Origin: Bacteroidaceae bacterium
GTDB lineage: Bacteria > Bacteroidota > Bacteroidia > Bacteroidales > Bacteroidaceae
Length of the DNA: 64,000 nt
Assembly (NCBI GenBank): GCA_017940565.1
Contig: JAGAYH010000021.1
Coordinates: 8,363 to 72,362, forward strand
Direction of reading: 5' to 3'
The translations under genes and the position numbers were made by a program. Shown piece by piece: positions 4,292 through 35,736 of the stretch (the stretch's first letter is position 1; each line of letters opens with the position of its first letter). A model generated the notes under the pieces. The model was given only the letters and a program-made list of their open reading frames with translations, had not been told where the DNA came from and searched no databases.

Positions 4292-4356
4292 GACTTATTT
4301 GCTTTCTTGTTATACCTCCCTGTCGTGTTCCCTATCGCTTAATTATGAATTAAGTG

Positions 4357-4866: not shown

Positions 4867-4896
4867 ACCAAAACTTCAAGCAATGAAAAGGTATCT

Positions 4897-8499: not shown

Positions 8500-8510
8500 C
8501 ACTACCTTCC

Positions 8511-13490: not shown

Positions 13491-16400
13491 TTACTGCCCA
13501 GTCAGCCCAATCTCCAACGAATCTATCCGTGCCATCGTCTCCTGACGCATCTTCCGAATCTGCGCCATCGTCTCAGCGTCGTCATTACCGATTGTACCAA
13601 GTTTCTTCTTTAACGCTTTTATCCCGACAACACCATACTCTTTACTACCATTGTTCATTCGGTTAATGAGTCCTCTCGCAACCAGCCAATCACGATTGGC
13701 TTCATTCCACGCCGCCTTTTCTTTACCGCTCAGCGTAGGGTCTGTAGCAACTTCTTCCTGCTTAACATAAACCTCTGTAGTTTTCTTATATAGTTTACTG
13801 ATTCGATAATCATCACGCACGTCATCAAAGGTGCTGTACATAAGATAGCGCTCGTTGTCCTCCGCGGTCTGACGCACATCCTCGCCCTTGATGAAGGCCT
13901 CGGCTTGTTTGCGGGCTTCGGCCAGTGTAAACGCTTTATATTCACTTTCGGCAAGATATTTTATAATTTTGTTTTTAGCCGTAGCTTTATCTTTTGCCAA
14001 CCGGGCATTGTCAAACGCCTCTTTAGCTGACGCCAAATCAACTACACCGTCAGAAAACGCTTCACGTTCTTTTTTGGTAAACGAACTTTTTACGCTCTTC
14101 AAAACATCTTCGGCGTCAATACCGTTCAGAACACAGGCTTTATAGGCTTTTTCTACCGCATCCATATCGCCTCTCTCAATAGCGGCGGTAAAGTCACGCT
14201 TGGCCTTCCAAATACTATATCCCTTGGAGCTTGGCATAGCCAAATCCAAGAAATGAAAATCTTGCTTCGCCTCTGTAGAGTTTGATATAAACAGACCTGA
14301 CACGTCAACCGCAGAATAAGGCATGAAACGGTTGACGGTAAGATAAGCAAGAGCCATCCAAGCACCGTGACGTTTCTTTATCTCCTGCGCAGTGCGGTCG
14401 TTGCCGTTAAAACCTCTAACACCAAGAGAACCTAAAAAGTCAATACTAAAATTCGTACCTGCAGAACCTTTAGTTAAGGCACGGTTAAGCAGCGGACGTG
14501 GGAATCCCCAGCCTTCAGCATCCTCAAACAGTTCCGGAAACTCTCTGAACTGCTTACCCCAGCGCAGATAGCGCTCACGACCATCAGAATAGCGGCCAAG
14601 AAACAACAATGATTGTTTGCCAGGTGCATTACCTAACATGGTGTAGTCATACCATTTCATGCCGTTCGGATAGGCCAATTCATACGGCGACTTATAGTCG
14701 GGATTCGTTTTACGTTCTTCTTCGGCTTTCTTCTTTTCTTTATCTTCATCTATCATGCGCTCTATTATGTTAGCCGCGTTCATTGCCAATAGTATCATCA
14801 AAACGCCTATTGCATAACATTTAACCGCTGTCATGGAGCGCAAACGCTTAAACTCGTCGGTTTTGAAGAATCCCTCAGAGTATAATGTGCCTATACCAAA
14901 GTTGGCCAAGAAATGGCGCATTGTAGAGAAAGTCCAGTCTGGGCTCAATATGCCACGACGAAGCCACTTCAAGGTTTTAGGGCTGATGCCTAATAATTCC
15001 CAATACTGACCACCGAACGTGTCATTGACAAGCTGACCATACTCGTCCAACATACGGTCGCGCATCTGGTCTCTTGTTAAGCCGTTTACCGTGGCATTAT
15101 CTGTCTTGTACAACTTGTCCAGACGTTTATCCGTTTGTTCGACAAAACGATTGAAAAGACTCAACTTCAAACCGTCATGCAACTGACGCCACAACAAATC
15201 ATCCCATTCCTTACCGACAGCACCCAACATCTTTCGTAGGGCGTCAACGCTGGTTATAACCTTATTCGGATGTTTCTGCGAATAGACGTACAGAGCACGG
15301 CTTATTTTATTGCTAATGGCTGTAGTGTCGGCGGCAGCAAAGTCCGAAGTGGCACCTAACTGCACCAAATGTCTGGCGGCCAACTTGAAATCTTCGGGAT
15401 GAGCAAATGCTGGAGATTCACCACGCAACAATGGGTCTACTACATATTTCATAAAGCCCTTGTTGGCAGAAGCCTTCACGCCAGCGCGGTAGGTATCAAA
15501 AAAGATATATTTGAACAAGGCCTTTGCAAGCCCAAATGGACCTCTCTGTGCCAACATGACTTCATTCAACGCCAAGTGATGAAATAATGAAACTGACAAA
15601 TTCATTCGCTTGGCAAATCGGTTAATAATATCATATATACGGCCAATTTCATGAGCCACATCTCCCACATCACTGCGTAAAACGCCAAAGGCAGCCCGGA
15701 AATACGGCACCGCAGCCCGATGAACATAAACCGTACCAAGCCCAGGGATTCTATAGCCTGGGTTGTGATAATACTCTTCATCAATGGGGCGAACATGGGT
15801 TGTGATAATAGGTATACGAGCCACTACCTCACCAGAGCTGTTCTTCTCTACAACCGTAACGGACGACATATCTTCCAACATAGCCTTGTTAGCCAAGGCT
15901 TCGTTGTTTTGGCGGCTATAATGAGCCATAATATCAAGCAACGATTTATATTTTGGCACCAATCCGAGAGCCTCACCATTCAAATAAGTATCTACACTGC
16001 GGAGGTGCATATTAGGGCTTTGCGTGCGCTGCCGGTTCTCCGGTAAAGGACCTTTCAAATATGCAGACAGTTTCTTTGGTGTGGATAGTGCCTCCAGAAC
16101 TTGTGGGTCACTCTTACCGGCATCCCACACATGATTGATGTACCCTTCGGCAATATAACCGGCATCACGGCGAAGGCCTGCAGCATCCAACATATGATAC
16201 ATGCGGTCGTACCATTCTTTGATGTCCGACAACAGCTGTTTCACCTCGGCACTGTCCATCAACGCACGCATCGCGGGAGACATATCGGGCAATGTCCGGG
16301 CGGTAATCAGGTCATAAACAGCCAATACGTCTCCGGACGTGATATACCCTCTGTCACTATTATTGCTATTGGCGCTATCGGTTCTATCCTCACCGTTCAA

Positions 16401-19400
16401 AACCTTGGCAACTTCCCTGGCGGCGTCAATCACCTCCGGCGTGGCGGCGGCCTCATCCGGATTGTAATTCAAGTCGCGCAACTTGGCAATGGCAGCCTCG
16501 GCACGCAATAGATCAGCCGGCGTGACTCGTAACCGATTTAGAGCAAAGGTAAGAGTAGCATTTAACTGTCTGGCTATGATTTGGCGGGCACGCGGAGCCT
16601 CCATCATATAAGGCAAAGTCTCCAATACTTTCTTAACCGTTATGTTGGCACCTGCTTCTCGTGCAGATTTAACCAGTGCTTTTACACGGTTCTCTATACC
16701 GTGAATAAACAAAGTGTCTTCTGCATTAGAGCCTTCTAATTGTTTACGTCTGGCGATGACCGAGAACTTCATTTCAAGGTTAGCGCGGCTTTCTTCTATA
16801 TCCAAACCGACATTTAGGCCGATTGCTTCGGCTTCCAAAATTTCGGCTTCGGCTTTCGTCATACCATCCATAGCGCCATTGACAGCAGCTTCTACATCAT
16901 ACTCATACAACTGCTGCCACGAGCGCCCGCGGTCGGCCTTATCTCGCTCTGTTCGCCACGCCCGATAGGCGTCACGCCAACGGGCTGTCAGTTCTTCATC
17001 AAAAGACTCTGGTTCTAAAGGACGGGGATGCTTATCCAAAAAGTCACGCATCTGGTTCCATCCACGCAAGCGCATGACATAAGCCATTTGCGATTCATTC
17101 TTCTTACGCTTTGGTTGGTGGCGCAGACTCGGTGCCTTTTCATAACGGATGCCATCCTCTCCGACAAAAGTACCTTCATTCGCTTCATTTTCGGAACTAT
17201 TGGAACTATCAGTGCCATTGTCACTACTTCCACCTTCCCCTGCCAACTGATAACGGGGTACACCGTCAGAAGACGAGGTTAATCGATTATTACGTTGTCC
17301 TTGAAGTATTTTACCATCTTCTTGACTACCTCTGGACGTATCTTCTTCTGTTCTTCTTGCGCCTTCTCCTCTTGCGGCTGTTTCTTCTCCTCTGTCATAA
17401 CCTAAACTATGTTCTATTGATTCAATTCTTGATTTATCACCACTGTCCTGAAGCAGGTTGGTTACCTCGTCAACAGAACCGTGAGCCATGGCGCGACCCA
17501 GCCACGTGACGAAAAACTCTTCTTTCCACTTCTCCGGCGTGTCGCGGTATTTCTTCTCAATATACGACTTGGAAACCTCACCGCCTTCGTCAGGAGCCAA
17601 ATCCCAAAATGCTTCGGCAATACGCCGCGGAGCGGGACTTGCGCCGTACCAGCTGCGCAAGATAGCGTGAATATTCTCGTGGAAGAACGTTTCCTCTTCC
17701 CTGTCTGACGGGATGCGCTCTGCAAAGATAATGATTTTGTCACTCGGCGGGAAATAAAAGGCATAACTTTTCTCAGTAAATTGCTTTATTTCCTCAACAA
17801 AAGCAATCTTTTCTTCTTGGGTTGGCATGTCGCCTTCAAATATTTCTTCCGGAATGTCCAGCAAATCAAACACCTCTAACCCGTCCATTTTGTCGTTCAG
17901 GAAAACAAGCTGCTTGGAGTTGTATTTATCGGCCATGCGTCGTATGCGCTGCTCGGCCAATTCTCCCGTCCGCGGATAAAACCCGTGTACCAGGTCGGCC
18001 ATCATCGCGTCGGCAAAGTCCTCGGCCTTCATCGTCTTCAGACGGGCGTTGTTCCCGGCGAAGAGGTCGCGGGCCATCGTCCAGAAGCGTTTCAAGGCAC
18101 GGCGCAAGCGGTAGAACATCCGGGCCACACGGGCCTTGCCCATCAGGTCGGGCTCTTCGTTCATCATACGGCGGCGTTCCTCTTCCATGCGCTCCCGTCC
18201 ACGGCGGCCGCTGAAATGCGTGAACACTTCTTCCCACAATTCGTCTCCTTCCAAGTCGGGATAACGCCCTTTCACGTAGTTCACCAGGTCGGCGTCCTGT
18301 TCCAGTTCGCCTTTCAGGTGTTCCCATGCTTCGGGATTGGCCTCGGCAAGGGCTTCCACCCACAGGTGACCGTACTCGTGTATCGGCGTCTCGGCCGTGG
18401 CAATGCGCGGGTCAAGGTAGATTTTGCCGTTAAGCGTAAAACCGTAAGCCTGTCCGTCCGGCGTGCGGAAGAACATCGGTTGCCCCTGCATGACGTCACG
18501 CTTCATCTCCGGAGTGACGTCAACGCTCCACATCTTTTGGGCGGCTTCTTCGAGTACCGGCAACGCCACTTCGCCCACTTTGGCACCCCATTTCTTGACG
18601 TACTTGTTCACGAAACTGGGCAGCATCCGGTCGTAAAAGCCCTTCATGCCTTCGCCACCGATGCGGAGATTGTCACCTTCCCAAGTTTTCATATTTTCCG
18701 TACCTTTGCCTTGTACAGACAGAGCACCTGCGGCTATTTCCTTGCCGACAATCTCACTGATATTCTTTACACCTGACAGGTATTGTTGACCTACACGGTT
18801 TGTCTCGGTAATATTACCTTCATCGTCAAAACCAATATCCATCGTTGGGCCGCCTTGCAGATGAATAAGCAAAGCGCGTTTCCCTTCCTGGTCTATTGCG
18901 GCATCAATACGCCTTACAGACTGGCCGATATTGTATCGCTCCGCCTGTTGCTCGCCCGGGGTCCATGCCACTTTGTCGTAACCGTTCTCGGCGGCATAAC
19001 GCAACATACGCTTCATGGCCAGTTCGTGCCAGTTCTTCTCAAACGGGGCATCGGGAATATCTGAAATGCCGTGATTCTGGAAGCGCTCGCTGGCAGCGTA
19101 CACTTCCTGTTCCAAACGGTCGGCTTCTGTGCGTTCGGCGTCTGTCATGTCGGCATAGATGTCTTCGTAAGCACCGTTATACTTCTCACCCATCCTGCGG
19201 GTGTAAGCATCGTAGGCTTCCTGGGCTTTATTTACGGCATCGCCCAATCTTTCTTCTTCGGCAACGGCTTCGGTTGTCCTATACCCCTTCTCCCGGCCTT
19301 CCTGATGACGTTTGCTCTGTATCTCGTCGATAACCAACACACGGACGTCTCTCTTGACCACGGTTTTTTCGCCTGTTATAGGATGGTTGATTTCTACGGG

Positions 19401-22400
19401 TTCTCTTCCCCATGAATCGCCAAACCTTATCCATGCCACGGCACGGCCGCCTCCGGCATCGCCGAAGTGGATGTCATCGTCATCGTTCCACGACTCAATG
19501 GTCGGCACGGTCAAAGCAATTTCGCGCTTATTCTCCAGCCCTTCGGTGGTGTAGGCGAGACGGGTGGTGTTTATCTTCTTGTTATCATCGCCAGCTATAT
19601 TTGAGTTATAGGCGTCTTCATCTACATCCCACTCGCCAATAGCGTAACTGATGGTTCCGTCGGAGATAGAATAACCCACCTCAAAGTCGTCACCATAGCG
19701 GTCTTTCATCTGTTCGGTCAGCCACTCGTCACGCTCGGAAGCATCCATGCCGTCAAGTTCATCGCCTGCAAGTCTGATTTCCGTATCTATCTGCTCCTGC
19801 AATTCTTCGAGACTGTGACCGCGGGCAATGTTTTCTTGAATCTCTCTCTCCGTTGCAGAGAGTATATCTACATTCTCGCTATAGTTCACCTCCTCAATCT
19901 GAATCTGGTTTTGGTCGATGAAGTCGAGCACTTCCTGCTTGGTGAGGCTCTTTTTGTCCTGACCCTTCAGCCAGTCGGACAGACCGAGCCACTTGTCCTC
20001 ACCGGCCTTCAGGCCGCCCTGCTTCTGCAACATGGCCAGCCATTGTTCCGGCGTGGCTTTCTCCTGTCTGATACCCTCCACGGCACGGCGGGCATTGCTC
20101 ACAAAGACGGCCTGAGATACGTTGGCTTTCTGATATTTCGCATTTTTTTCGTCGTTTTCTATCGCTATCTCGGCATCTCTTCGTATCTTTGCAGCGTCGA
20201 AGGACGAGATAACGGTTACTGCATTTGCTCTTGCGGCTTCTGTTCCGTTCGTAACATTTGCAGGTTTAGACGTGGTATGCAGGGGGCGTTCATTAGAACG
20301 AGCATCTGCACCTCGTGAAGACAAAGTAGCCCACATGGTTATGGTATCCATATCATCAGGGCTATTTTTTTGCTCTTTTTCAACGACAAGAACAACACCA
20401 TTTTGAAGGCGTTTTTCAAAACGTATAGATTCCCTGCCATCGCTACTTGCACTACCTGGAATCACATTATCCGGAGCGGTCATAATATACGGGGCGAGTT
20501 TGAAATCTTCATCACGAAGAGGGATGCTGTTCTGGTCAATTTTCATGCCGCCGACACCATGGTTGTTCTTACTGTGTATTATACCGTTGGCATAGATGTT
20601 ATGGGTGTCAAAATCTCTACCCATTGCACGGCGCACCTTTCTTTGTGTTGACAGAGGCAATTCTATCTCCACGCGTTGGTCATTGTGCTTACCAGAGAGA
20701 CTCTCTTCAATAAATCGCTCTGCCTCTTGCAGGGCGTTCAGTCGCTTTTGCAGGCGCACACCTTCTCCATTCGCCATGTCCAGCACGCGCTGGCCTTCCT
20801 CCCAGTCGGTGGAGGTGGGAATACCGATGGCATTGAAGTGGTCGGCCATATACGCCGTCTCCTCACGCTCTTCCTGAGTGGCAGGACGGACGTCTTCGGA
20901 ACTGGTGAGTTGGTACTGGGGTTCATTCACCGCATTATAGTCCACCTCCGGCTCACCAAGCAAACCGCTCTCGGAGGCGCTGTGACCGATGTGCATCACT
21001 TCCAGGAACGGAGCTTGCAGCTGTTTCATACGCAGTGACAACCGCGACAAGCGCTTGTCATCCTCCTTCGTGTAGTCATAGTTCCCGTATAAGATGCCGC
21101 GTACGCCACCGCACTGGTGCACGTAACCGGCCAACAATTCGCCGGCCTCCGCGTACGATTTTATCTCGCTGAGTTTCGTCCACGGCAGGAAGACGTTGGC
21201 CACCACGCGCATGTCCTGCGTAACGACCAACAGACTCATCTTCTTGTGCTCACCCAAGCGGTGACTGCTGACAAACTGCGCCACTTTCAGGCTGCTGTCG
21301 ACCTTGAACGCCTCGGCGGGGTTCCAGTCGGGAGCGAACACCTGCTTGCTGAACTGATATACCTTGATGGGTATTTCGTTACCGGTTGCTTGCGGCATCT
21401 CTTCTTCGACACTATAGGTCTCATACGACGTTTCTATACTCTCAAACTCGCCGTAGTTGCCACTGGTGGTGTCGATGATGATTCCCTGTTGCACGACATC
21501 CTCGCCGAAGGCTCGCTTGATATGGTTGAGCACTTCCTGGTCTTGGCGGGACGCTTTTAAGTTACCGCTCGGATGGTTGTGTACGAAATAGACGGTATCG
21601 GGTTTTAGCGCCTGATAGGCCACAAACGCGGTCTCGAAGGGTGCCGCCGTCTTATTGTAACTGCCCATGCCCAGATGCACTATCGTGGGACGGCCGTCCT
21701 TCAACAACACGAGGAAGGCGTTTTCTACCGAGGCGGTCTCCAGTTGCTTGAAGATAAAGGCCACGTCTTCGGCACTTTCTATCTTCTCCTTGCCGGTGAA
21801 GTTAAACTGCCCGGTCTCTTCATAGACGCGCTCCACACGGCACGTCTCACCGGGCTCCAGCTTGCGCAGGCGCAGCGTGGTCGGGTCGAAAGCCTCCACG
21901 GCGTTCTTCTGCTCTTCGTACTGCTGCTTGGCAGCTTCACGCTCGGCTTCACGCTGGGCTTCCATCTCCTCGTCGTAACGCTCGGTTTCCAAGAAGTCGA
22001 TGTACGGCGTCAGGGCATCCATCTGCGCCCGCAGGGCGGTGCGCTCGTCCGTGGCATAGCCGCCGTTCAACCAGCGGCGCGACACATCGCCATACATACC
22101 GTAGGCATCGTCCAGACTGGTATTGCTCTGCTCCAACTGCTGGGCATAGGCCAACTGGGCATCGTCGTATTCCTGCTCGTGACGGCGGTCATATTCGTCG
22201 GCGTAGAAGTCGCGGTCATTGGCACCGCTCTCACCGATACGGTCTAACAACTGCGCGTCGCTCATCCCGCCGATTTCATCCGCCAACGCCTGCCCGCTGG
22301 CACGGTTGGCACTGTTGTTGCCGTTGCCTCTCTCACTCTCGAACAAACTCTGATAAACGACTTGTTGCCCGTCCAGCGTATTGTATATTGTCTGCGGTTC

Positions 22401-25400
22401 TTGCAGCATGACATTGCCTTCCGGCTTGATGCCCTCCTCAAAGTAGCGGTCAATGTCGGCCAATACTCTTTGCGGACGGACACCTTCATATTCCACATAG
22501 TGGTCGCTGTCCCAACCGTCACCGAAGTCCACGGACACATCGCCGTCGTTTCTCTGAATGAGGCGGCGCAAAACCTCGCGCTGTTCCGGGGTCGGCTTGA
22601 CGGCAAGGTTGATGGTGCCGGCATTGTCGTCTATACGTATGCCTCCACGCTTTATAAAGTCGGGCATGTCTGTTTCTATGCCTGTTTCTATTTCATTGCC
22701 GTCATTATCGTATTTATAGGCTATTGTGCTTATCACGCGGTGGTCGGTAGCCCTGCTACCTCGGATAGCGGAGTCATCAGCGCCAAATAATTCATGCCTG
22801 CCGCTAAAGTCCAGCATCGTGCCGTCGGGTAATACATAGCCGGCTTCCCGGATATCGTATGTGCGACCGAACTTCTCCTTGGCGGCGTTGAATATTTCTT
22901 CGCTCTCTGCATTAAAGGCTATTTCCGGCTCGCCCGAGAATAAATTTCGCTCCGGAAGTTTGGGGTTTTCAAAACTTTCTATTACCTTTGCAGCAGATTG
23001 AAGCTCTTGGTTAGATTGAGCCCCTGCAATTGGAGCAGGAACGCTGATGTAATCAAGGGCTTTTTCTTTGTTTGCATAAAGTAATTTTTGGCTGTTTATC
23101 CAACGGACTACGTTATTGTTGTCCTTCCCGTAAACCGATGTGATGATATTAAAATCAACATCATGTCCGCCCTTGCCGACGGTTAAAGTGGCAAGTACGT
23201 TGTTTCCGTTTATCTGAAGTTCCGTGAGGATGGCGAAGCTGCCTTTTTGCGAGCCTTCAAAAACGGCTATGGGGTTACTGATGGCCTGCGGAAGATTCTT
23301 TATGTCGTGATAATCGTAGCCATGTTTTTTTGCTTTCGATATTAACTTGGCACCGTAGAGGCGGATAGGCTTGTTCTCTATGCCACACGACAAAAGAATA
23401 TCATTCGGTCTGCCGCAGTCCAACTGAACTTCCCGCGCGTTTTCCTCTGTCAGACTTTCCAATTCCTCATTAAACCGTTCATTGGCTGTGTTTTTATTAT
23501 AAGCCATATCCGGTTCTCCAACCATGTCCGAGCCGGACATGTCGTAATAATAAGAGGTGGCTTCGTCGGGTATGCGGTTCATGGGCATAACCAGGGCGGT
23601 GCCGTTGGCGTTGGCGGAGACGACGGCACGGTCGTTGCCTTTATACTGGAACTCCGTCGTGCCAAGATAAGTGCCGGCGGCGGCCATGCGCTCCAGACGG
23701 CTCAGGTCAAACAGCGCTATCTCGCCGTTCGGCAGGCGTACCTGTACGGTGGCATTCGCCGTGTACGCACGGAAGGAGGTTTTGTCCAAGTCGCCGCGCT
23801 CACGCAGTTCGTCATATTCCACCTTCATCTTGGCACGCACGCCGGCGATGAAGCCGAGCAGGTCGTTCCAATCTACTGAGACACGCTGGCCGCCCGTGGG
23901 AATGACGGCTTTCCAGTTGGGGTACGGCACGTTTATCTCCATACCCTTGCCGGCCACCGTGGGGATATTGCGTTCGGCGATGACCTTACCTTCTTTCGTA
24001 GGATCGTAACGCTGCTTGTCGGCTATCAATACAAAACCGTCCGTGGTGACGGCATAACCGTCGGGGTCGTAATAAGTACCGCCAAGTGCGGCGTGCGTGC
24101 TGTCTTTCGAGGCGAAATCGCTGGCCTTGAACTTGGCCACGGCCTTGCCATGGGGGATGCTGCCTTGCGCCTCCAAACCTTCGGCGAAGCGGTCGGCTTC
24201 GGTCTTGGCAACTTTACGGCGGCGTTCCTCGTCCTCGACGAAGATAGGGAGTTCTACCAACTGATGCTCTTCACCGTAAGCGGAAATCGCATTGAGCTCT
24301 TCCTGTGACAACGACGACAACAAGGGTATTATTCGGCGGCGCAGCTCGGACATTTGCTCGTCCAATGCACGCAACCGCTGCCGGTTCTCGCTGTCGTCAA
24401 TTTCGTTGGATAACCACGCCTGATGAAGAGCATCCCGCTCGTCGGACTGCCGCTCCAGGTCGGCCACCAAGGGCGCCACAGAGGCAGGCAGGTTGCCGGA
24501 TTGGGCACGGCCTACTTCTCGCCCTTCACCTGTTCCCGTGCCCAGAGACCCATCACTATCGATGCGATTTCCACGTTCCGCGTTGTGTGGTGACGGGCCA
24601 TCTGCTGTTGTATCACGCTCTCCGGCGGGAGATTCCTGTTCGCCTTGCACCACTGCAGGGCCTTCGCCAGTTCTTCCCGGTACTGCTCCTTCGTCAGACT
24701 GCGCTGCCACGCGATGGCTTTCTGTAATTCTTCTCTCATTGTCTTCTTGTTCGTATTGTTCTGCAAATATACTAATAACTTCGTCATAATACCGGCTGTC
24801 TTCCTCGGCTTTTTGATAGCAATAATCGCTATAGTCCTGCCATTCGTCGATATCCTCGAAACCCTGACCTATTGCCCAGTTGTTGGCCTGGTCGCGTTCA
24901 GCCTCGTCATATTGGCGCTGCATGTCGCTGTGACGCTCTTCGGCTTCGCGCATCATACTCTCCTTACGGTTGTGCGAACGCAACACGTCCAACACCACGC
25001 CAAAGGCGTCGGAAGCCTGCTCGCTGCCGATGTCGTCAATGGGCAGGCCGTTGTCGTTACGCTCCTCACGGTAGCCCTGCCACAGTTCCTCGGCCAGCTG
25101 CTCGGGATAGAACGCGCCGTTCTTCTTCGTACCTAACAGCCAGATATACTGACGACGCTCCGACTCGCTCTGACCGGTCAGGTGAGCACCGAGACCACGG
25201 GTACCGGTAACGGGGTCGTCGCCCCATATCACCTTCAAACCCCTGCCGGAGGCGGCAAGCGTGCGCTCCACGTAATCGTAGAAGTCCAGGTAATCACCCA
25301 GCGCACGCTCACGCTGCTGCATCGGTGTCAGCGACGCCTTGCGCCGGTTGGACCGCGGGCGACCGTCAATTACCGTACCGCTATTGCCATTACCTCCCTC

Positions 25401-28400
25401 ATTTTCTTGCCCGTTTATTTGGCCGGTATCGGGAGTATTTGTAATTTTGCTTTCAGAAGAGATGCTTTGAGGAGTTATTCCCGAGCCCTCTGTCGCAGTC
25501 TCGGCTTTTAATGGCTGCACATAGTCCAAACCTTGCCCCTCAGCCGAAGAGGTAGTCGCATCTTTCGGAGTGCGCCAAATGACATCTCCTTCAGTTAAAA
25601 GCCGCAGCAGTTTGTTGCGGTTTTTTTCTTGATTAGACACAACAACTTCACGGCCGTCCTTACTTACTGTTACCGATGTGAAATAGTAATAACGGGAGCC
25701 GTCGGCTTTGGTAAACGCTTTTACAAAAATGTATGAAGAATTACGCTCTGTAATCTGCCCCTCGTTGGCTTCACTCGGCGTTTCTATAACCACATCAGGA
25801 TTTTCAAGTGTAGGCTTAATCATCCCAAGTTTGCCTTCGCGGCCCTTACGCATAAGTTTGGTGAACTGGTTTTCACCCATCTTCACTTCACCTATAGGTG
25901 TATTCACGATACCGTCTTCTCCGAACAAAGCATCCCAATTCTCTATAGTTAATTCTACTTCGGGCGCTTCCGCTGCACGATTTTCCATTTCAGAGACAAA
26001 AGAAATAGCATCGTTTGGACTTAATTTTTCTTGCCGCTGCTCTGGCTCTTCGTTGGGATTAGCCCCATTAACCCCAGTTTGCCCATCCGAGGAAACAAGC
26101 GGTTGCCCGCCCTCGCCATTGGCACTATCGGCACTATTGATACTATTGATACTATCCTCTACCGCCTTTGTCTCTTCTTCGCGGAGGTAACCTCTCACTT
26201 CATCAGCTGACAAACTGAAGGTTTCTTCGGGATTGTCGGCGGAGCGCACAATGACATCATTTCCTTCCACACGGTCAATCACGGCTCGCGCTTCCTCGCC
26301 GGCGGCGGAAATTGTAAATTCACGCCCAGGCGTAAGCGCCGTGTTATCTATCCAGTCATTGACACGCTGGGAATATTCATCCACGGCCTGATTAAAGGCG
26401 GCGGCCAACAGGTCATCCACTGGTTGCACCTCTCCGATGGTCTTGATGTCACGCGTCGATACTTGACGGTTCTGACCGGCGGCGTCGGTCACCATTACTG
26501 TACCGTATTCATTCTCGGGGTCTCCACTGCGCAGATAGACACGCGAACCGTCAGCCAGTTCCATTTCCACAACGGTATTCTCCTCCGTGGCACGGCTCGC
26601 TATCTCGGCCCTTATCTGGTCTCGCTGTGGTCCCATCTCCGTCACGGCCGACTCGATGCCCCGCATACGCTCGTTGGCAGCAGACAAGGCTTCCACGGCC
26701 GAACGCTGCTCGGCAGTCAGCTCATTCTCGTGCGAAGCAATAAAGGCGTCCAAGTCAGCGTCACTATTGACGGCCGCCGTCAACTCATCCGCCAAAACAC
26801 TGTCACCGAAGGCACGCGCCACACGGGCCTCGGCAATACGGCTCTCACGACCGGCAAGAGCCACGGCCTGCCCATCATCGTTAGCCAAGGCATCACGCAT
26901 CAACGCAACACCTTCTCCACGATAGTCTGGCCGCTCTGGGGCTTCACTCGGCACTTCAGGGGCACCGCCATCAATAATCCTATTATTACCTTCCAATCCC
27001 GTTTCTTCCTGAGATGGACCTTCAATCTGTTTGCGGGTGAACTGCTCCGGACGGACGCGTTCGCGACCGAGGATGTTGTCTTGGAGGGTGGCTACATAAT
27101 CTTCTACCAACGCTTGCTCGTCGGTGCTGCGCTCACGTTTTTCAAGAATGGTTTTTAATTTACCATGCTCCAACCCGTGACGGCTTTCAAAATCCATGAC
27201 GATATCTTGCAGCGCACCGCTCTCGCCCGCCATTTTACCAAGCAGTTTCATGGTAGCATCTACAGATTGCTGCTCGTCTTTAGACAACGATTCGCCACGA
27301 GACATTTTCTCGAGGCCGGAACGGAAGGATTCATTGTTTTTGAGTACCCACTGCTCTTCCTCTGTCAACGCTTCGCCTCGGCTTTCTTTGTCCCTTAGCG
27401 CACTGATATATTCTTCTGACATGCCGGCTGCCCAACCGTCCTTTAACGCGGCAGCATCCCAACGGTTGGTGATATCGTCGGCAACCACTCGTTTCTCCAA
27501 GGCATCTATTTGGTTTAGCTGAACCTGCCACGTTTCACGTTGAACGGTGGCGGAGGCATCTTCTGAAGATTTGGCAGCTTGACGGTCTATTACACGGCCA
27601 TCTCTGTCTAACCATTCTACATAATGTTTCCCGTCGGTTTCAACGGCGCGGACAGCGGTCGCAGTGTTCAATCCGCGGCGGTAGTCACCGGTCAACAGGG
27701 CATACCACTTGCGAGCCTCCTTTTCAGTGATAGCACCCTCATCATAAAGTAGGTCTAACTGATGCAGACCGTTGGTGACATCCCTGTCTTCTGGCTTCAA
27801 GGCATTCACATCCGTAACATCAGAGCGTGACGGACGGCCGGCAAGTTCTTGGCTTGGGTCGGCTAACTTCACGGCAATATCGGTCAAGCGATCACCAAAA
27901 CCTAAATCACGCATCTTTGCTACATCACTTGGCGTGATTTCATAATTTTCCCGGAAATATTGGTTTTTCTTGGCGGCATTACGACTGGCGATAAAACCTG
28001 GTACGTCTAAGGTGGCAAACATGGCCACATTCTTCAGGTAGTTTTGCCCTAACTCGGACCACGACATCGGTTTGCCGTTCTCATCGTAGTATTCCAGAGC
28101 GCCGACTCCCGTCATACCGGCAGCATTGGTGGCGATGCTTGCTCCTTTACCGGCTAAAGAGGATGCAAGACCATGACCGAACCTGTTCGTGATATAATGC
28201 TCGGGGATGGCTCCGGCGCCAAACAGCGCACCGCCTGCAGCTCCCCAACCCATGTCCGTAAACATACGGCCAATAATATCTGTGGGACCAACCGTCGGTT
28301 CTTGGTGCTCTGTTCCGCTCATGGCATCCAAGGAGCGGGTACTCTCGGCACCAGTTGGCTGTGTTAATGTGTTGACGGGTGATGTGGCAAAACCGTGCAG

Positions 28401-30266
28401 GCCAAAGGTTGTCGCACCGCTGATGGCGTGACTGCCTACTTTAGTCTTTAATGACTGACTGGCTATCTGCTCGGCAATACGACCGGCCTGGCGTTTGCCA
28501 AGACCGCGGGCGACCAAGTCTTTACTTATCTTATTCACGGCACTTTTGACAGCCCCTCTGGCAGCAAGACCGCCTACAGCCTGAGGACCGAGGAACGTCC
28601 AGAAATCAAAGAGGAAGGAACCGACTTCGCTGGCTACCTCGGTCATAAAACTGGGGTCATAGGCTTTCGCGGCCAACTGGTCAAGGTAGTTCTCGTAATC
28701 TGTTTGAACGGCACCAACGGTCATCTTACCGGTGACGCTGTTCAAAAAGGCGCTCTTGAATATCTGTTCTATGGTGCTGTTCGCTTTCCTCTCGTTAACC
28801 AACCGGCCCTGGAGCTGTTGGTACATCTGTGCTCCGAATAAGGCTCGTTGTTCTTCCGACATTCCTTTGGTAAGTTCGTCTAACCGACCGATGGCGGCGT
28901 TAATGGCGTTCTCTGGAGCAGAAAGCTGATTGGCTTCGCGCATCTTTCCGAAGTTGACAACGGTACCCTGAGCTCCCTGGCCACCGTAGTCTGTTACCAT
29001 AATGTCCTTGGCCTTGGATTGTGCGGCTTCCTTTCCAACAGCCAACTGTTCTTCAAAGGTCTTCATGACATCGGCCTCTATAGCCTCGCGCTGCTTCTTC
29101 CGCTCTATGCGCTGAATAGCCATAGGGTTGACACGACCCGTGGGCATCGGACGGCCATATTCATCTATATAGGGATTGTAAGCGTCGCGTTCGGCTTGTA
29201 ATTGCTCGGCAACGCCCATAGGATTCCATGGCGCATTCATCCCGATAGCATCGCGCAGGTTGGGAAGTATGAATTGATTCCAATACTCTTCCGGAGTTAC
29301 ACCCAGCCACGAGGCTTCTTGTTGTAATCTGGCGGCATCTTTAGATTTTTTCCCCATTACCGCGCGGGTGACAATATTCAGGGCGTTTTCACGCTGTTTG
29401 ACGGTGGCTTCTTCAGGCATGAGGGCCAACGCTTCCTTTGAGAGGCTGTTGACGTAGTCTCGCATATTTTCAGTGGCCACAGACGTATGGTAACGCTGCA
29501 TCTCTTCGGCATCACTGCCTTCAGGGATATCGTGGGCGCGGTTATAACGCTTCACTTCTTCCAGCGGCGTCACCAGCTCGTTATTAACGACAATGCCTTC
29601 CTGATAGAATTGAGGCACATTCTGCCCATCTGTTTGTGCGGTCTCATTGGATGCCGAGACTTCTTCACTGCCGGACGTAACTCCCAATTTATGCCAAGGA
29701 CCTACAAGATAGTCGCCTTGCAGTTCACCCGCACCCGCAATCTCTTTCTTTTCCTCGGGCACGGCGGCTTCCTGCGCCTGGCTACTATTGGAACTATTGT
29801 TGCCGCTCTCCTCTTCGCGCTTCGCCTGAAGCACCTCGGCCAAAGTGCCGCCCAACTGACCGCCGGCGGACACACTGCGAGAAACGGCTTCGTCCACGAC
29901 TACATTGTTCTCGCTGGCACCGGTCGGCACTGCCGGCTGCTGTGCGGGAACATTCTCTTCTGGTACACGACCACGGCTATCATCAACCGCCGGTTGCGTC
30001 ACACCGCCAGCTTCTGGCACGGCGGCTTGCTGGTCCTGACCACTATTGTAACTATCGGCACTATTACTACTATTGACACCTATCCAACTCAAAAATTCAT
30101 CTTCCGAACCCACATCGTCATAACCGTCGTTAAGCAATAATTGATGAACTTTTTTGGCGTTACTCTTCTCCGAGACAAACGCGCGGAACTCGTCTTCCGT
30201 ACCCACATCGTCATAACCGTCGTTAAGCAATAATTGATGAACTTTTGTGATATTATCTTGTGCCAT
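13491..30266 (-). CDS. giant polyvalent protein (5,591 aa); probable packaged or injected multi-domain virion protein
   Basis: One uninterrupted 16,776-nt ORF next to the portal gene. Motifs read directly: HNHPSGNLKASRQD (RadC/JAB), HEYGH and HENIH (zincin-like), TTDGFVLIA...YPNWKAVIP...ALVMPMN (DnaN-like), and WHELAMKRMLRYAAENGYDKVAWTPGEQQAERY...GGEGMKGFYDRMLP. There are also hydrophobic and Gly-zipper segments and seven Ser/Asn-rich linkers. Confidence 0.8.
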   Translation of the reverse strand: MAQDNITKVHQLLLNDGYDDVGTEDEFRAFVSEKSNAKKVHQLLLNDGYDDVGSEDEFLSWIGVNSSNSADSYNSGQDQQAAVPEAGGVTQPAVDDSRGRVPEENVPAQQPAVPTGASENNVVVDEAVSRSVSAGGQLGGTLAEVLQAKREEESGNNSSNSSQAQEAAVPEEKKEIAGAGELQGDYLVGPWHKLGVTSGSEEVSASNETAQTDGQNVPQFYQEGIVVNNELVTPLEEVKRYNRAHDIPEGSDAEEMQRYHTSVATENMRDYVNSLSKEALALMPEEATVKQRENALNIVTRAVMGKKSKDAARLQQEASWLGVTPEEYWNQFILPNLRDAIGMNAPWNPMGVAEQLQAERDAYNPYIDEYGRPMPTGRVNPMAIQRIERKKQREAIEADVMKTFEEQLAVGKEAAQSKAKDIMVTDYGGQGAQGTVVNFGKMREANQLSAPENAINAAIGRLDELTKGMSEEQRALFGAQMYQQLQGRLVNERKANSTIEQIFKSAFLNSVTGKMTVGAVQTDYENYLDQLAAKAYDPSFMTEVASEVGSFLFDFWTFLGPQAVGGLAARGAVKSAVNKISKDLVARGLGKRQAGRIAEQIASQSLKTKVGSHAISGATTFGLHGFATSPVNTLTQPTGAESTRSLDAMSGTEHQEPTVGPTDIIGRMFTDMGWGAAGGALFGAGAIPEHYITNRFGHGLASSLAGKGASIATNAAGMTGVGALEYYDENGKPMSWSELGQNYLKNVAMFATLDVPGFIASRNAAKKNQYFRENYEITPSDVAKMRDLGFGDRLTDIAVKLADPSQELAGRPSRSDVTDVNALKPEDRDVTNGLHQLDLLYDEGAITEKEARKWYALLTGDYRRGLNTATAVRAVETDGKHYVEWLDRDGRVIDRQAAKSSEDASATVQRETWQVQLNQIDALEKRVVADDITNRWDAAALKDGWAAGMSEEYISALRDKESRGEALTEEEQWVLKNNESFRSGLEKMSRGESLSKDEQQSVDATMKLLGKMAGESGALQDIVMDFESRHGLEHGKLKTILEKRERSTDEQALVEDYVATLQDNILGRERVRPEQFTRKQIEGPSQEETGLEGNNRIIDGGAPEVPSEAPERPDYRGEGVALMRDALANDDGQAVALAGRESRIAEARVARAFGDSVLADELTAAVNSDADLDAFIASHENELTAEQRSAVEALSAANERMRGIESAVTEMGPQRDQIRAEIASRATEENTVVEMELADGSRVYLRSGDPENEYGTVMVTDAAGQNRQVSTRDIKTIGEVQPVDDLLAAAFNQAVDEYSQRVNDWIDNTALTPGREFTISAAGEEARAVIDRVEGNDVIVRSADNPEETFSLSADEVRGYLREEETKAVEDSINSINSADSANGEGGQPLVSSDGQTGVNGANPNEEPEQRQEKLSPNDAISFVSEMENRAAEAPEVELTIENWDALFGEDGIVNTPIGEVKMGENQFTKLMRKGREGKLGMIKPTLENPDVVIETPSEANEGQITERNSSYIFVKAFTKADGSRYYYFTSVTVSKDGREVVVSNQEKNRNKLLRLLTEGDVIWRTPKDATTSSAEGQGLDYVQPLKAETATEGSGITPQSISSESKITNTPDTGQINGQENEGGNGNSGTVIDGRPRSNRRKASLTPMQQRERALGDYLDFYDYVERTLAASGRGLKVIWGDDPVTGTRGLGAHLTGQSESERRQYIWLLGTKKNGAFYPEQLAEELWQGYREERNDNGLPIDDIGSEQASDAFGVVLDVLRSHNRKESMMREAEERHSDMQRQYDEAERDQANNWAIGQGFEDIDEWQDYSDYCYQKAEEDSRYYDEVISIFAEQYEQEDNERRITESHRVAAQSDEGAVPGRTGEGPAVVQGEQESPAGERDTTADGPSPHNAERGNRIDSDGSLGTGTGEGREVGRAQSGNLPASVAPLVADLERQSDERDALHQAWLSNEIDDSENRQRLRALDEQMSELRRRIIPLLSSLSQEELNAISAYGEEHQLVELPIFVEDEERRRKVAKTEADRFAEGLEAQGSIPHGKAVAKFKASDFASKDSTHAALGGTYYDPDGYAVTTDGFVLIADKQRYDPTKEGKVIAERNIPTVAGKGMEINVPYPNWKAVIPTGGQRVSVDWNDLLGFIAGVRAKMKVEYDELRERGDLDKTSFRAYTANATVQVRLPNGEIALFDLSRLERMAAAGTYLGTTEFQYKGNDRAVVSANANGTALVMPMNRIPDEATSYYYDMSGSDMVGEPDMAYNKNTANERFNEELESLTEENAREVQLDCGRPNDILLSCGIENKPIRLYGAKLISKAKKHGYDYHDIKNLPQAISNPIAVFEGSQKGSFAILTELQINGNNVLATLTVGKGGHDVDFNIITSVYGKDNNNVVRWINSQKLLYANKEKALDYISVPAPIAGAQSNQELQSAAKVIESFENPKLPERNLFSGEPEIAFNAESEEIFNAAKEKFGRTYDIREAGYVLPDGTMLDFSGRHELFGADDSAIRGSRATDHRVISTIAYKYDNDGNEIETGIETDMPDFIKRGGIRIDDNAGTINLAVKPTPEQREVLRRLIQRNDGDVSVDFGDGWDSDHYVEYEGVRPQRVLADIDRYFEEGIKPEGNVMLQEPQTIYNTLDGQQVVYQSLFESERGNGNNSANRASGQALADEIGGMSDAQLLDRIGESGANDRDFYADEYDRRHEQEYDDAQLAYAQQLEQSNTSLDDAYGMYGDVSRRWLNGGYATDERTALRAQMDALTPYIDFLETERYDEEMEAQREAEREAAKQQYEEQKNAVEAFDPTTLRLRKLEPGETCRVERVYEETGQFNFTGKEKIESAEDVAFIFKQLETASVENAFLVLLKDGRPTIVHLGMGSYNKTAAPFETAFVAYQALKPDTVYFVHNHPSGNLKASRQDQEVLNHIKRAFGEDVVQQGIIIDTTSGNYGEFESIETSYETYSVEEEMPQATGNEIPIKVYQFSKQVFAPDWNPAEAFKVDSSLKVAQFVSSHRLGEHKKMSLLVVTQDMRVVANVFLPWTKLSEIKSYAEAGELLAGYVHQCGGVRGILYGNYDYTKEDDKRLSRLSLRMKQLQAPFLEVMHIGHSASESGLLGEPEVDYNAVNEPQYQLTSSEDVRPATQEEREETAYMADHFNAIGIPTSTDWEEGQRVLDMANGEGVRLQKRLNALQEAERFIEESLSGKHNDQRVEIELPLSTQRKVRRAMGRDFDTHNIYANGIIHSKNNHGVGGMKIDQNSIPLRDEDFKLAPYIMTAPDNVIPGSASSDGRESIRFEKRLQNGVVLVVEKEQKNSPDDMDTITMWATLSSRGADARSNERPLHTTSKPANVTNGTEAARANAVTVISSFDAAKIRRDAEIAIENDEKNAKYQKANVSQAVFVSNARRAVEGIRQEKATPEQWLAMLQKQGGLKAGEDKWLGLSDWLKGQDKKSLTKQEVLDFIDQNQIQIEEVNYSENVDILSATEREIQENIARGHSLEELQEQIDTEIRLAGDELDGMDASERDEWLTEQMKDRYGDDFEVGYSISDGTISYAIGEWDVDEDAYNSNIAGDDNKKINTTRLAYTTEGLENKREIALTVPTIESWNDDDDIHFGDAGGGRAVAWIRFGDSWGREPVEINHPITGEKTVVKRDVRVLVIDEIQSKRHQEGREKGYRTTEAVAEEERLGDAVNKAQEAYDAYTRRMGEKYNGAYEDIYADMTDAERTEADRLEQEVYAASERFQNHGISDIPDAPFEKNWHELAMKRMLRYAAENGYDKVAWTPGEQQAERYNIGQSVRRIDAAIDQEGKRALLIHLQGGPTMDIGFDDEGNITETNRVGQQYLSGVKNISEIVGKEIAAGALSVQGKGTENMKTWEGDNLRIGGEGMKGFYDRMLPSFVNKYVKKWGAKVGEVALPVLEEAAQKMWSVDVTPEMKRDVMQGQPMFFRTPDGQAYGFTLNGKIYLDPRIATAETPIHEYGHLWVEALAEANPEAWEHLKGELEQDADLVNYVKGRYPDLEGDELWEEVFTHFSGRRGRERMEEERRRMMNEEPDLMGKARVARMFYRLRRALKRFWTMARDLFAGNNARLKTMKAEDFADAMMADLVHGFYPRTGELAEQRIRRMADKYNSKQLVFLNDKMDGLEVFDLLDIPEEIFEGDMPTQEEKIAFVEEIKQFTEKSYAFYFPPSDKIIIFAERIPSDREEETFFHENIHAILRSWYGASPAPRRIAEAFWDLAPDEGGEVSKSYIEKKYRDTPEKWKEEFFVTWLGRAMAHGSVDEVTNLLQDSGDKSRIESIEHSLGYDRGEETAARGEGARRTEEDTSRGSQEDGKILQGQRNNRLTSSSDGVPRYQLAGEGGSSDNGTDSSNSSENEANEGTFVGEDGIRYEKAPSLRHQPKRKKNESQMAYVMRLRGWNQMRDFLDKHPRPLEPESFDEELTARWRDAYRAWRTERDKADRGRSWQQLYEYDVEAAVNGAMDGMTKAEAEILEAEAIGLNVGLDIEESRANLEMKFSVIARRKQLEGSNAEDTLFIHGIENRVKALVKSAREAGANITVKKVLETLPYMMEAPRARQIIARQLNATLTFALNRLRVTPADLLRAEAAIAKLRDLNYNPDEAAATPEVIDAAREVAKVLNGEDRTDSANSNNSDRGYITSGDVLAVYDLITARTLPDMSPAMRALMDSAEVKQLLSDIKEWYDRMYHMLDAAGLRRDAGYIAEGYINHVWDAGKSDPQVLEALSTPKKLSAYLKGPLPENRQRTQSPNMHLRSVDTYLNGEALGLVPKYKSLLDIMAHYSRQNNEALANKAMLEDMSSVTVVEKNSSGEVVARIPIITTHVRPIDEEYYHNPGYRIPGLGTVYVHRAAVPYFRAAFGVLRSDVGDVAHEIGRIYDIINRFAKRMNLSVSLFHHLALNEVMLAQRGPFGLAKALFKYIFFDTYRAGVKASANKGFMKYVVDPLLRGESPAFAHPEDFKLAARHLVQLGATSDFAAADTTAISNKISRALYVYSQKHPNKVITSVDALRKMLGAVGKEWDDLLWRQLHDGLKLSLFNRFVEQTDKRLDKLYKTDNATVNGLTRDQMRDRMLDEYGQLVNDTFGGQYWELLGISPKTLKWLRRGILSPDWTFSTMRHFLANFGIGTLYSEGFFKTDEFKRLRSMTAVKCYAIGVLMILLAMNAANIIERMIDEDKEKKKAEEERKTNPDYKSPYELAYPNGMKWYDYTMLGNAPGKQSLLFLGRYSDGRERYLRWGKQFREFPELFEDAEGWGFPRPLLNRALTKGSAGTNFSIDFLGSLGVRGFNGNDRTAQEIKKRHGAWMALAYLTVNRFMPYSAVDVSGLFISNSTEAKQDFHFLDLAMPSSKGYSIWKAKRDFTAAIERGDMDAVEKAYKACVLNGIDAEDVLKSVKSSFTKKEREAFSDGVVDLASAKEAFDNARLAKDKATAKNKIIKYLAESEYKAFTLAEARKQAEAFIKGEDVRQTAEDNERYLMYSTFDDVRDDYRISKLYKKTTEVYVKQEEVATDPTLSGKEKAAWNEANRDWLVARGLINRMNNGSKEYGVVGIKALKKKLGTIGNDDAETMAQIRKMRQETMARIDSLEIGLTGQ
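30109..30246 (-). repeat. in-frame tandem duplication at the 5' end of the giant gene (93-bp period)
   Basis: A perfect 45-bp match (30109-30153 and 30202-30246) encodes KVHQLLLNDGYDDVG(T/S)EDEF twice, at aa 8-27 and 39-58. Confidence 0.9.
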
Positions 30267-31998: not shown

Positions 31999-32028
31999 AA
32001 TAGATAAGTTTAATGTTTATAAACACTA

Positions 32029-32036
32029 CAAAAATA
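32029..32036 (-). promoter_or_regulatory. -7 box TATTTTTG for the leftward operon
   Basis: Exact TAnnTTTG match 30 nt upstream of the ATG at 31998. ATTGTA lies exactly 32 nt further upstream. Confidence 0.5.
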
Positions 32037-32056
32037 CGAGACCGCTGCCACCGCAA

Positions 32057-32112
32057 TCGGATAAATTGTACAATCTATCACGCGCCACCGCGTCAGCATC
32101 AATTACCTTTGC
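32057..32112. repeat. 56-bp regulatory module, copy 2
   Basis: Direct repeat of 13327-13382. It contains the palindrome ATTGTACAAT (32065-32074) and a plus-strand TACCTTTG -7 box (32104-32111), 16 nt upstream of the ATG at 32128. Confidence 0.85.
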
Positions 32113-32127
32113 CAAAAAATTATTCCC

Positions 32128-35727: not shown

Positions 35728-35736
35728 CTGTCGCCC

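Follow-up and report, generated by a model that had tools for sequence, protein, structure and literature searches.

Polyvalent proteins join two or more unrelated activities in one chain. Iyer et al. (2017; PMC5512222) argue that those of the phage type are packaged into virions and processed by metallopeptidases (MPTases). About 40% of the known examples reside in conjugative elements, and the RadC-JAB domain was listed as specific to polyvalent proteins of such elements (PMC5512222). Among phage weapons they are predicted to enter the host cytoplasm first, very few have been studied experimentally, and we found no study of one from Bacteroidales phages in the literature. The 2,811-amino-acid (aa) polyvalent protein of phi24B is present in large amounts in virions, although reconstructions do not show it, and an ejection role has been proposed for it by its authors; the polyvalent protein of PTXU04 is essential. 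Here we describe a gene of this kind in a 64,000-nucleotide (nt) stretch of DNA from a Bacteroidaceae bacterium (assembly GCA_017940565.1, contig JAGAYH010000021.1, positions 8,363 to 72,362 of the forward strand), which we refer to as the window. Its product of 5,591 aa is referred to as the giant.

Three observations place the giant in this class. First, PBECR2, MuF_C, RadC-JAB and PBECR3 domains and two modules with HExxH motifs lie in a single chain. Second, the gene sits in a portal-terminase phage context, with P22_portal and TerL genes and a capsid-like gene nearby, and its relatives are found on IMG/VR viral contigs. Third, architecture varies among these relatives, with modules present in patches, in differing order and in mosaic alleles. 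Apart from a formally significant zincin profile match, every testable defining feature of polyvalent proteins was found, and we regard it as very probable that the giant is a polyvalent protein as Iyer et al. (2017) define the class. An original prediction, made from the sequence alone, had proposed the same class, and the hallmark Pfam families, the conserved HExxH motifs, the portal/terminase context and the shuffled relatives all bear it out. The same prediction had placed the giant's size far outside the ordinary range; this part fails, since polyvalent proteins of up to 12,242 aa are known (Iyer et al., 2017; PMC5512222) and the giant's own family reaches 7,483 aa, which makes its size unremarkable. 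The full explanation that we favor, at a probability of about 0.7, is that the giant is a phage polyvalent protein that is packaged via its conserved ends and ejected with the DNA, delivering enzymes.

Domain architecture of the giant

The giant is encoded at 13491..30266 on the minus strand as one open reading frame (ORF) running from ATG to stop, with 5,591 codons plus the stop codon in both the ORF listing and our own translation. The only stop in the translation is the terminal one, and the window contains no N. Along the ORF, the other two frames contain 17-52 stops per 500 codons, and GC by codon position (0.59/0.40/0.56) is throughout like that of the portal and TerL genes; a run of 5,591 codons without a stop would arise by chance at this base composition with a probability of ~1e-112. 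The uninterrupted 16.8-kb frame of the original prediction is confirmed by the ORF listing, the translation and this coding signature. An identical 5,591-aa protein is deposited as MBP3764566.1 ('MAG: hypothetical protein J6H19_02145 [Bacteroidaceae bacterium]'). The exact sequence is called on 6 contigs, the longest of 146.7 kb, and its 90% cluster holds a second 5,591-aa sequence on a 155.9-kb contig.

Pfam models were scanned against overlapping 1,500-aa tiles at E<=0.1, and against short tiles of ten unannotated stretches of the giant at E<=1. The short tiles yielded only noise, and the only NCBIfam match on the giant was RadC. The features that we distinguish are as follows.

13491..30266, minus strand: giant ORF, phage-type polyvalent protein, 5,591 aa (MBP3764566.1)
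30078..30245, minus strand: tandem N-terminal motif KVHQLLLNDGYDDVG(T/S)EDEF, aa 8-32 and 39-63
26247..29189, minus strand: conserved N-region, aa ~360-1340, collinear in about 10-21 of 44 full-length giants
25572..25922, minus strand: PBECR2 RNase-like domain, aa 1449-1565 (Pfam E 4.9e-15, 56.2 bits, cut-off 27.1; also phrog_13543)
24549..25343, minus strand: unannotated module, aa 1642-1906, common to L004 and L006 among the compared sequences
23058..23336, minus strand: MuF_C (PBECR-type) domain, aa 2311-2403 (Pfam E 8.2e-22, 77.7 bits)
22410..22940, minus strand: unannotated module, aa 2443-2619, common to L005 and a Rhodobacteraceae phage ORF annotated as a methyltransferase
21507..21779, minus strand: RadC-like JAB metallopeptidase, aa 2830-2920 (Pfam E 4e-7, 30.4 bits, cut-off 22.1; NCBIfam RadC)
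20331..20639, minus strand: PBECR3 RNase-like domain, aa 3210-3312 (E 1.2e-6, 28.9 bits, just under the gathering score of 30)
18465..20132, minus strand: unannotated conserved module, aa 3379-3934 (partial match to phrog_7348, 2,564 positions)
17865..18488, minus strand: zincin-like module 1, aa 3927-4134, HEYGH at aa 3963 (HExxH in 28/28 aligned homologues)
17307..17957, minus strand: zincin-like module 2, aa 4104-4320, HENIH at aa 4196 (HExxH in 5/5 homologues)
13494..17114, minus strand: conserved all-helical C-terminal module (C-module), aa 4385-5591
14748..14843, minus strand: sole strongly hydrophobic, transmembrane (TM)-like helix of the giant, aa 5142-5173, within the C-module
16359-16402, 17190-17233, 22296-22330, 26109-26161, 30036-30088 and 31343-31377: DNA repeats encoding Asn/Ser linkers

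The giant is tripartite, with a variable middle (aa ~1400-4380) between a conserved N-terminal end and an invariant helical C-module of ~1,200 aa that has one TM-like helix. The middle strings together independent modules, connected by Asn/Ser-rich linkers: three RNase-like domains of the BECR fold, a RadC-type JAB domain, two zincin-like modules with HExxH motifs, and five or more modules without annotation. An intact JAB motif (HNHPS..S..D) lies at aa 2896, and its HxHPS core is kept in 12/14 aligned homologues. Zincin-like module 2 gives a weak SprT-like match (E 0.11), with no significant Pfam zincin match. The PBECR3 module recurs in L010, and the module at aa 3379-3934 is found in ~9 giants and in cyanophage and pelagiphage ORFs. 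In the N-region, aa ~540-770 form a Gly/Ala-rich, mildly hydrophobic stretch. GC falls to 0.455 in window 14001-16000, within the part that encodes the C-module.

At the extreme N-terminus is a motif of ~30 aa with the consensus LYxxLxxxGYDxG(T/S)xxEF, doubled in the giant, which may be a targeting signal. Similar motifs occupy the extreme N-terminus of the related proteins P0004, P0015, P0017 and P0030, and of gp68 of the Bacteroides phage BF1-TP2. The copy number varies, the motif being single in several other giants and doubled in BF1-TP2 gp68. In the window the ~31-aa duplication is in tandem (30094-30156 and 30187-30249), with 94% nt identity between the copies.

Asn/Ser-rich linkers (such as NSINSADSANG and DSANSNNSD) occur at aa 65, 157, 1371, 4353 and 4630, with a weaker one at ~2647; a regular expression for them finds 5 sites in the giant against 0.19 expected by shuffling. 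They are encoded by a family of 35-nt DNA repeats (63-86% identity), which lie at module boundaries of the giant and in the gene just upstream, p389. Enzymatic motifs separated by low-complexity linkers had been anticipated by the original prediction, and both elements are present: Pfam and the HExxH and JAB motifs support the former, the linker sites the latter, and the profile search that it proposed did find independent domains (PBECR2, MuF_C, RadC-JAB and PBECR3). The idea of the linker as a family-wide motif, for example a conserved protease site, was rejected: it is absent from 13 other members and present in L001, and so is specific to this lineage.

An AlphaFold2 model of the C-module, built from a 48-sequence alignment, is almost all-helical (pLDDT 81.6, pTM 0.73). 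In BFVD it matches C-terminal fragments of uncultured-phage proteins that are named 'Large polyvalent protein associated domain-containing' (E 2e-17 to 1e-4, TM 0.25-0.5), and a protein named LPD38 from 'Podoviridae sp. ctsfx1' matches at E 1.4e-6; the Pfam LPD38 model itself has no match at E<=0.1 in the giant and none in 48 C-module-bearing members. Weaker BFVD matches include a 'structural protein' of a Flavobacterium podovirus (E 8e-3), an 'Internal virion protein D' (E 0.016), the core protein of Pseudomonas phage PAO1_Ab05 (E 0.021, probability 0.96) and the internal virion protein of LKA1 (E 0.034). For the N-region, the only credible BFVD matches are two N-terminal pieces of 'Podoviridae sp.' giant proteins. 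A single-sequence search of the PDB gave only a type I restriction-modification methyltransferase (E 2e-4) and a spike S2' construct (E 4.5e-4), which we discarded as marginal, short and absent when a profile was used.

Relatives and allelic mosaicism

Relatives were sought through the C-module, by scanning back-translated patterns against metagenome-assembled genomes (MAGs) and IMG/VR, and by an exhaustive phmmer search of 1.84 billion representatives of 50% identity clusters. The pattern scans yielded 6 loci in Bacteroidales MAGs (Prevotellaceae, Prevotella, Bacteroides and Paludibacteraceae) and 27 IMG/VR viral contigs with the C-module, so that the search for homologues in viral catalogues suggested by the original prediction proved productive. 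Among 33 related loci, including L001, the frame is open through all fetched upstream DNA in 31. The open upstream frame extends for at least 1,900 aa in these 31 loci, and for at least 3,400 aa in those 28 for which 7 kb or more of upstream DNA was fetched. The ORF of L009 is complete at ~4,000 aa, and L001 alone is short, at 1,167 aa. The phmmer search returned 473 matches at E<=1e-3 (143 at E<=1e-30), and in all 473 cluster representatives the C-module lies at the extreme C-terminus. The 44 fetched C-module proteins of at least 3,000 aa extend to 7,483 aa, and a shorter core of the module (giant aa ~4870-5440) also ends proteins of 1,300-2,400 aa. The giant is typical of this large, unnamed family, which belongs to Bacteroidales phages of the gut and rumen, and its size falls in the middle of the range. 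A word-indexed search with the C-module or a 22-sequence profile returned P0001 only, evidently missing the giants recovered by the exhaustive search. A tblastn search of isolate phages with the C-module gave no match, no PHROG family covers the C-module in 48 family members, and we found no literature on this phage family or on BF1-TP2.

Comparison of the giant with its relatives by blastp shows the C-module to be universal, and the N-terminal motif and collinear N-region to be common to many full-length giants, whereas the middle is shared only in patches whose order differs. Pfam domains in 11 related partial giants show a similar shuffling: InPase is present in 10/11, and SNF2/Helicase_C, ResIII, RadC, MuF_C, Eco57I and N6 methylases, nucleotidyltransferases, LPD1/3/5/13, ART-PolyVal and PBECR1/2/3 also occur, in shuffled order. 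A few of the scanned family members carry ART-PolyVal, RadC, LPD23 or peptidoglycan-binding/endolysin domains, the last in one member.

Mosaicism extends to very close relatives. We compared contigs from other samples whose portals fall in the 90%-identity cluster of the window's portal, and which are 95.6-97.4% identical to the window at the nt level over up to 11.8 kb of structural genes. Despite ~97% identity elsewhere, their giant alleles are mosaic. Insertions or unrelated sequence lie between near-identical patches (98.4% at aa 3869-3932, 98.0% at aa 3931-4344, 97% at aa 3378-3463, 94% at aa 3102-3167 and 92% at aa 2571-2621), and the end of the 98% patch, at aa 4344, coincides with an Asn/Ser linker. 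All compared contigs carry a different C-module allele, with 66-81% nt identity in alignable segments; P0001, encoded by L001, is 53% identical at the aa level. Five related contigs share a right breakpoint at window 13591 (giant aa 5559). To its left, from the portal onward, identity is 96-97%, and to its right the C-module falls to 66-81%. This sharp breakpoint indicates that one phage population harbors two C-module alleles that have diverged deeply. Several short-read contigs of close phage relatives (among L041, L043, L044 and L046) end inside the giant gene, which is expected if population mosaicism breaks assemblies; gene catalogues probably under-count giants.

One allele is a deletion. 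L001 has the same host flank as the window (98.9% identity over 10 kb) and the same portal (96%), and between the portal and p181, the gene upstream of p389, it has only the 1,167-aa gene. This gene is 97.6% identical to L044, which bears a giant allele of 5,185 aa, from L001 position 10041 onward, and is an in-frame deletion derivative of an L044-like allele that has lost roughly 13 kb. The deletion junction (L001 10001-10060, compared with window 31400-31450 and L044 ~6300-6400) is an 11-nt microhomology, TTGAAGCCGCC, between p389 codons ~14-17 and the giant; codons ~1-17 of p389 are fused in frame to the C-module of the 5,185-aa allele. It is exactly the C-module that survives. The natural alleles of 5,591, 5,185 and 1,167 aa form a ready-made deletion series for asking which parts packaging and infectivity need.

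Phage setting and proposed role

The giant is flanked by the following phage genes and repeats.

8385..10634, plus strand: large terminase TerL (phrog_2, E 1.5e-18)
11198..13267, minus strand: P22-like portal, directly downstream of the giant on the same strand (Pfam P22_portal E 1.4e-26; PHROG portal E 2e-34)
4897..6645, minus strand: probable major capsid protein (phrog_26635; the BF1-TP2 homologue is annotated as DUF5309 family)
844..2397: tail-fibre-like matches
31453..31998, minus strand: p181, first gene of the triad p181-p389-giant, 181 aa with Gly-rich hydrophobic ends, 37% identical to BF1-TP2 gp70
30290..31450, minus strand: p389, 386 aa from a conserved ATG at 31450, low-complexity and Q/R/E-rich, with a weak match to BF1-TP2 gp69 and a homologue in L009
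13319..13409, no strand assigned: copy 1 of a 91-nt direct repeat, in the giant-portal spacer upstream of the portal, with palindrome ATTGTACAAT
32049..32139, no strand assigned: copy 2 of the 91-nt direct repeat, upstream of p181, with palindrome ATTGTACAAT

On the minus strand the order is p181, p389, giant, portal. The p181 stop and the p389 ATG are 2 nt apart, and the p389 stop lies 23 nt from the giant's ATG, in another frame. A single interrupted ORF comprising p389 and the giant was considered and rejected, given the different frames and a stop codon that precedes the giant's ATG by 15 codons in its own frame. The N-terminus of p181 is hydrophobic (KD 1.76). A triad of small gene, ~390-aa gene and giant also adjoins an integrase on the contig of P0015. 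The original prediction had set the giant between the portal and two small virion-like genes; the position stands, and the 'virion-like' character is unsupported, as neither p181 nor p389 has a match in Pfam, PHROG or NCBIfam. The copies of the 91-nt repeat are 79% identical overall (~90% over a ~64-nt core) and share the 10-bp palindrome ATTGTACAAT; on this evidence the repeat is probably a shared regulatory element, a candidate operator or promoter. A scan of the giant-portal spacer for sigma-70 promoters and terminators gave nothing above shuffle expectation, the sigma-70 model being unsuited to Bacteroidota. An ORF at 32013..32492 (plus strand) overlaps one repeat copy and may not be a real gene. 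The start of TerL is uncertain, with 707 aa on related contigs and a maximal ORF of 749 aa here.

Phage genes lie to the left, and bacterial genes begin at ~33.4 kb (Omp85/BamA, a GlgB-like protein and a MORN-repeat protein), so the element is a prophage whose right end lies just past the giant. As the phage part runs from position 1 to ~32-33 kb, the giant ORF fills about half of the visible phage module, which the original prediction had put at 'more than half'. No tail tube, sheath or tape-measure gene is recognizable in the window, as that prediction had noted, or in the BF1-TP2 annotation, and megablast of window 8000-32500 against phage and plasmid collections gave no match. The element is a temperate, probably short-tailed (podovirus) phage integrated in a Bacteroidaceae chromosome. 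In the host part, the Omp85/BamA gene (33361-35979) has an uncertain start (750-788 aa on related contigs, 872-aa maximal ORF here), and a protein of 10 MORN repeats (39178-40299; Pfam E 4.9e-82) is conserved in L001. Host tRNAs lie at 45.4-45.8 kb (Gly-GCC, Leu-GAG, Leu-CAG and Gly-GCC at 45459-45820), and a tRNA-Gln at 55833-55904; as they do not adjoin the prophage end, none of them is likely to be the att site.

If the giant is a packaged polyvalent protein, its synthesis would be late, and the conserved ends would bring it into the procapsid. It would then be ejected with the DNA, possibly building or extending a trans-envelope conduit with the hydrophobic-ended p181 and the TM-like helix, and its RNases and peptidases would arrive before any phage gene expression. 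Cleavage by the zincin and JAB domains may release separate effectors from the chain. Cassette exchange and deletion between related phages turn the middle over, as is expected of counter-defence cargo. By analogy with the precedents, we think that packaging and ejection are, on balance, the better bet. An ejection or channel role, which the original prediction had raised, would be consistent with synteny, with the weak internal-virion fold matches and with phi24B proteomics.

Several points weigh against this explanation. More than 80% of the chain is without Pfam annotation, so that most modules are no more than candidate effectors, and expression, packaging, processing and ejection are all argued from precedents. 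The podovirus morphology is likewise deduced, from the P22-type portal, the 'Podoviridae sp.' fold matches and a BF1-TP2 annotation without tube, sheath or tape measure. The C-module model has no match in the PDB by Foldseek (best E 0.56), its profile has none among PDB sequences, Pfam, PHROG or NCBIfam, and hhalign was negative against T7 gp16, T7 gp15 and phi24B vb_24B_48. Resemblance in fold to internal virion proteins is weak (E 0.016-0.034, TM ~0.2), and such matches come readily to long helical proteins. Confidence in the N-region model is low (pLDDT 58.7), and the 1,167-aa deletion allele may come from a defective prophage.

A more ambitious version, which we put forward tentatively and consider doubtful as it stands, is that the conserved ends are a dedicated, undescribed protein-delivery chassis of Bacteroidales podovirus-like phages, with the linker joints doubling as recombination breakpoints. 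The ends would attach the giant to the portal or the core and guide its passage across tail and envelope, so that any cassette placed between them would be co-injected. The giant gene would then be a plug-and-play effector locus resembling polymorphic toxins, and the C-module a new ejection/encapsidation domain family.

The alternative that survives best, though we consider it unlikely, is that the giant is polyvalent but unpackaged. It could act in the infected or lysogenic cell, in anti-defence or superinfection exclusion, with its ends serving folding or regulation. Packaging does rest on analogy, Iyer et al. listed RadC-JAB as specific to conjugative elements, and the giant's place at the prophage end, close to host DNA, is one often taken by moron-like and lysogeny genes. 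Yet the giant is on the same strand as the portal and just upstream of it, and this adjacency recurs in most related loci, where the order of giant, portal, TerL block and capsid block is conserved. The 91-nt element precedes both the triad and the portal. In the wider family, P0060 (1,411 aa) lies within a capsid-to-tail structural block, following genes of capsid-157-192-824-154-478 aa. Other polyvalent proteins of phages end in the C-module fold, which also bears a weak resemblance to internal virion proteins, and the phi24B protein was found in virions.

Still less probable is a mainly structural virion component (tape-measure-like, needle or core) whose enzyme-like domains are decayed or structural. 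The lack of a recognizable tail tube, sheath or tape-measure gene in the window and in BF1-TP2 would fit this idea, as would the long helical stretches of the N- and C-regions, which have weak BFVD matches to tape-measure proteins. However, the probability of these fold matches is at most 0.25, and the catalytic motifs are kept (HExxH in 28/28 and 5/5 homologues, the JAB HxHPS in 12/14). Moreover, the middle is swapped, inserted and deleted between ~97% identical phages, which a length-determining protein would not tolerate.

An assembly or annotation artefact, in which a chimeric join or collapsed frameshifts would hide several ordinary genes, could explain why contigs of close relatives often end within the giant gene and why one related contig holds just a 1,167-aa gene at its position. 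This reading is effectively refuted. The identical protein on 6 contigs excludes it for practical purposes, answering the concern raised in the original prediction, and the second cluster member on a 155.9-kb contig, the open frames in 31/33 independent related loci, the 44 cluster representatives of 3,000-7,483 aa and the uniform coding signature all oppose it; the clean microhomology deletion accounts for the 1,167-aa allele. Equally remote is a host integrative conjugative element or polymorphic-toxin locus, suggested by the RadC domain and by the ~40% of polyvalent proteins that reside in conjugative elements, but contradicted by the flanking TerL, P22-like portal, capsid-like and tail-like genes, by relatives on IMG/VR contigs and in isolated Bacteroides phages, by the lack of a plasmid match, and by the absence of type IV secretion system (T4SS), relaxase and toxin-trafficking domains from the giant (Pfam, NCBIfam) and from the scanned neighbors (Pfam).

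Comparison with known systems

The giant resembles the polyvalent proteins of Iyer et al. in linking PBECR RNases, MuF-C, zincin MPTases and JAB in a phage with portal and terminase, and in the variable architecture of its orthologues. It differs in that its C-module and N-region match no Pfam LPD or other model, and in that it carries RadC-JAB, whose presence in a phage-type polyvalent protein runs contrary to the 2017 partition and was not found in the searchable literature. The C-module and N-region 'bookends', the p181-p389-giant triad and the allele series are likewise absent from Pfam, PHROGs, NCBIfam, the PDB and the searchable literature. The original prediction had likened the position to that of MuF/gp7-type packaged proteins. 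The giant does lie beside the portal, but it is upstream of it, whereas MuF genes are usually downstream, and unlike MuF/SPP1 gp7 it has no Phage_Mu_F match at E<=0.1 (1,500-aa tiles) or E<=1 (short tiles). MuF_C is the PBECR-type domain from the C-terminus of Mu F and not its head domain. On both counts the giant is not a MuF/gp7 protein, and the argument is only loosely right.

Among studied phages, the Stx phage phi24B, a temperate podovirus, offers a parallel in gene order. Its polyvalent protein (gp47 or vb_24B_48; 2,807-2,811 aa, with LPD5, LPD1, LPD38 and MuF-C) is half the giant's size and belongs to a phage of a host from a different phylum. As in the window, the genome end (HM208303; L040 27853-37572) has small genes, a 421-aa gene and then the 2,807-aa giant, although neither tblastn nor the C-module profile detects similarity to our giant, nor is there any to the window triad. 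The order of small genes, ~400-aa gene and giant may be a recurrent organization in temperate podoviruses. BF1-TP2 (PQ571263.1), BS-TP4 and BKO1-TP3 are temperate Bacteroides phages available as isolates, whose portal (27-32% identity) and capsid-like protein are related to those of the window. The triad recurs in BF1-TP2 (gp70, 182 aa; gp69, 441 aa; gp68, 3,633 aa with the doubled N-terminal motif), but neither blastp nor HMM searches match gp68 to the giant or to its C-module, and the triad genes are annotated as hypothetical. These culturable relatives suit virion proteomics.

Two ejected proteins offer looser parallels. The virion RNA polymerase (RNAP) of N4, gp50, has an N-terminal helical injection region, a functional middle and a ~1,400-aa C-terminal encapsidation region, together with a zincin domain. 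This three-part logic parallels the giant's N-region, variable middle and C-module, as an analogy only; Pfam, NCBIfam and PDB sequence searches of the giant gave no RNAP family, such as the T7-like single-subunit module, and the giant is not an N4-type virion RNAP. T7 gp16, with the gp14-gp15-gp16 core, is also a large helical protein with smaller partners, which bridges the envelope and has an N-terminal enzymatic domain. P0060 occupies a gp16-equivalent position, as gp16 follows genes 10-15, while the window triad instead precedes the portal. The C-module differs from these T7 proteins, with hhalign probabilities of 2% against gp16 and 0.2% against gp15 and an empty PDB fold search, and homology of the giant to gp16 is not demonstrable on these results.

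The 473 cluster representatives share one uncharacterized C-module, with a confidently predicted fold that matches no solved structure. If the conserved ends are packaging and ejection signals, foreign proteins could be loaded into gut phages. The closest precedent for the mosaicism is the Helicobacter prophage polyvalent protein jhp1044, in which PBECR and other domains are duplicated and rearranged in up to 50 combinations. The rearrangement among its orthologues resembles that among the giant's alleles; its domain set and host are different, and a conserved C-terminal anchor of this kind has not been described for it. The giant extends a known class and does not reveal a new one, as both its size and its shuffling have precedent, in the 12,242-aa polyvalent protein and in jhp1044.

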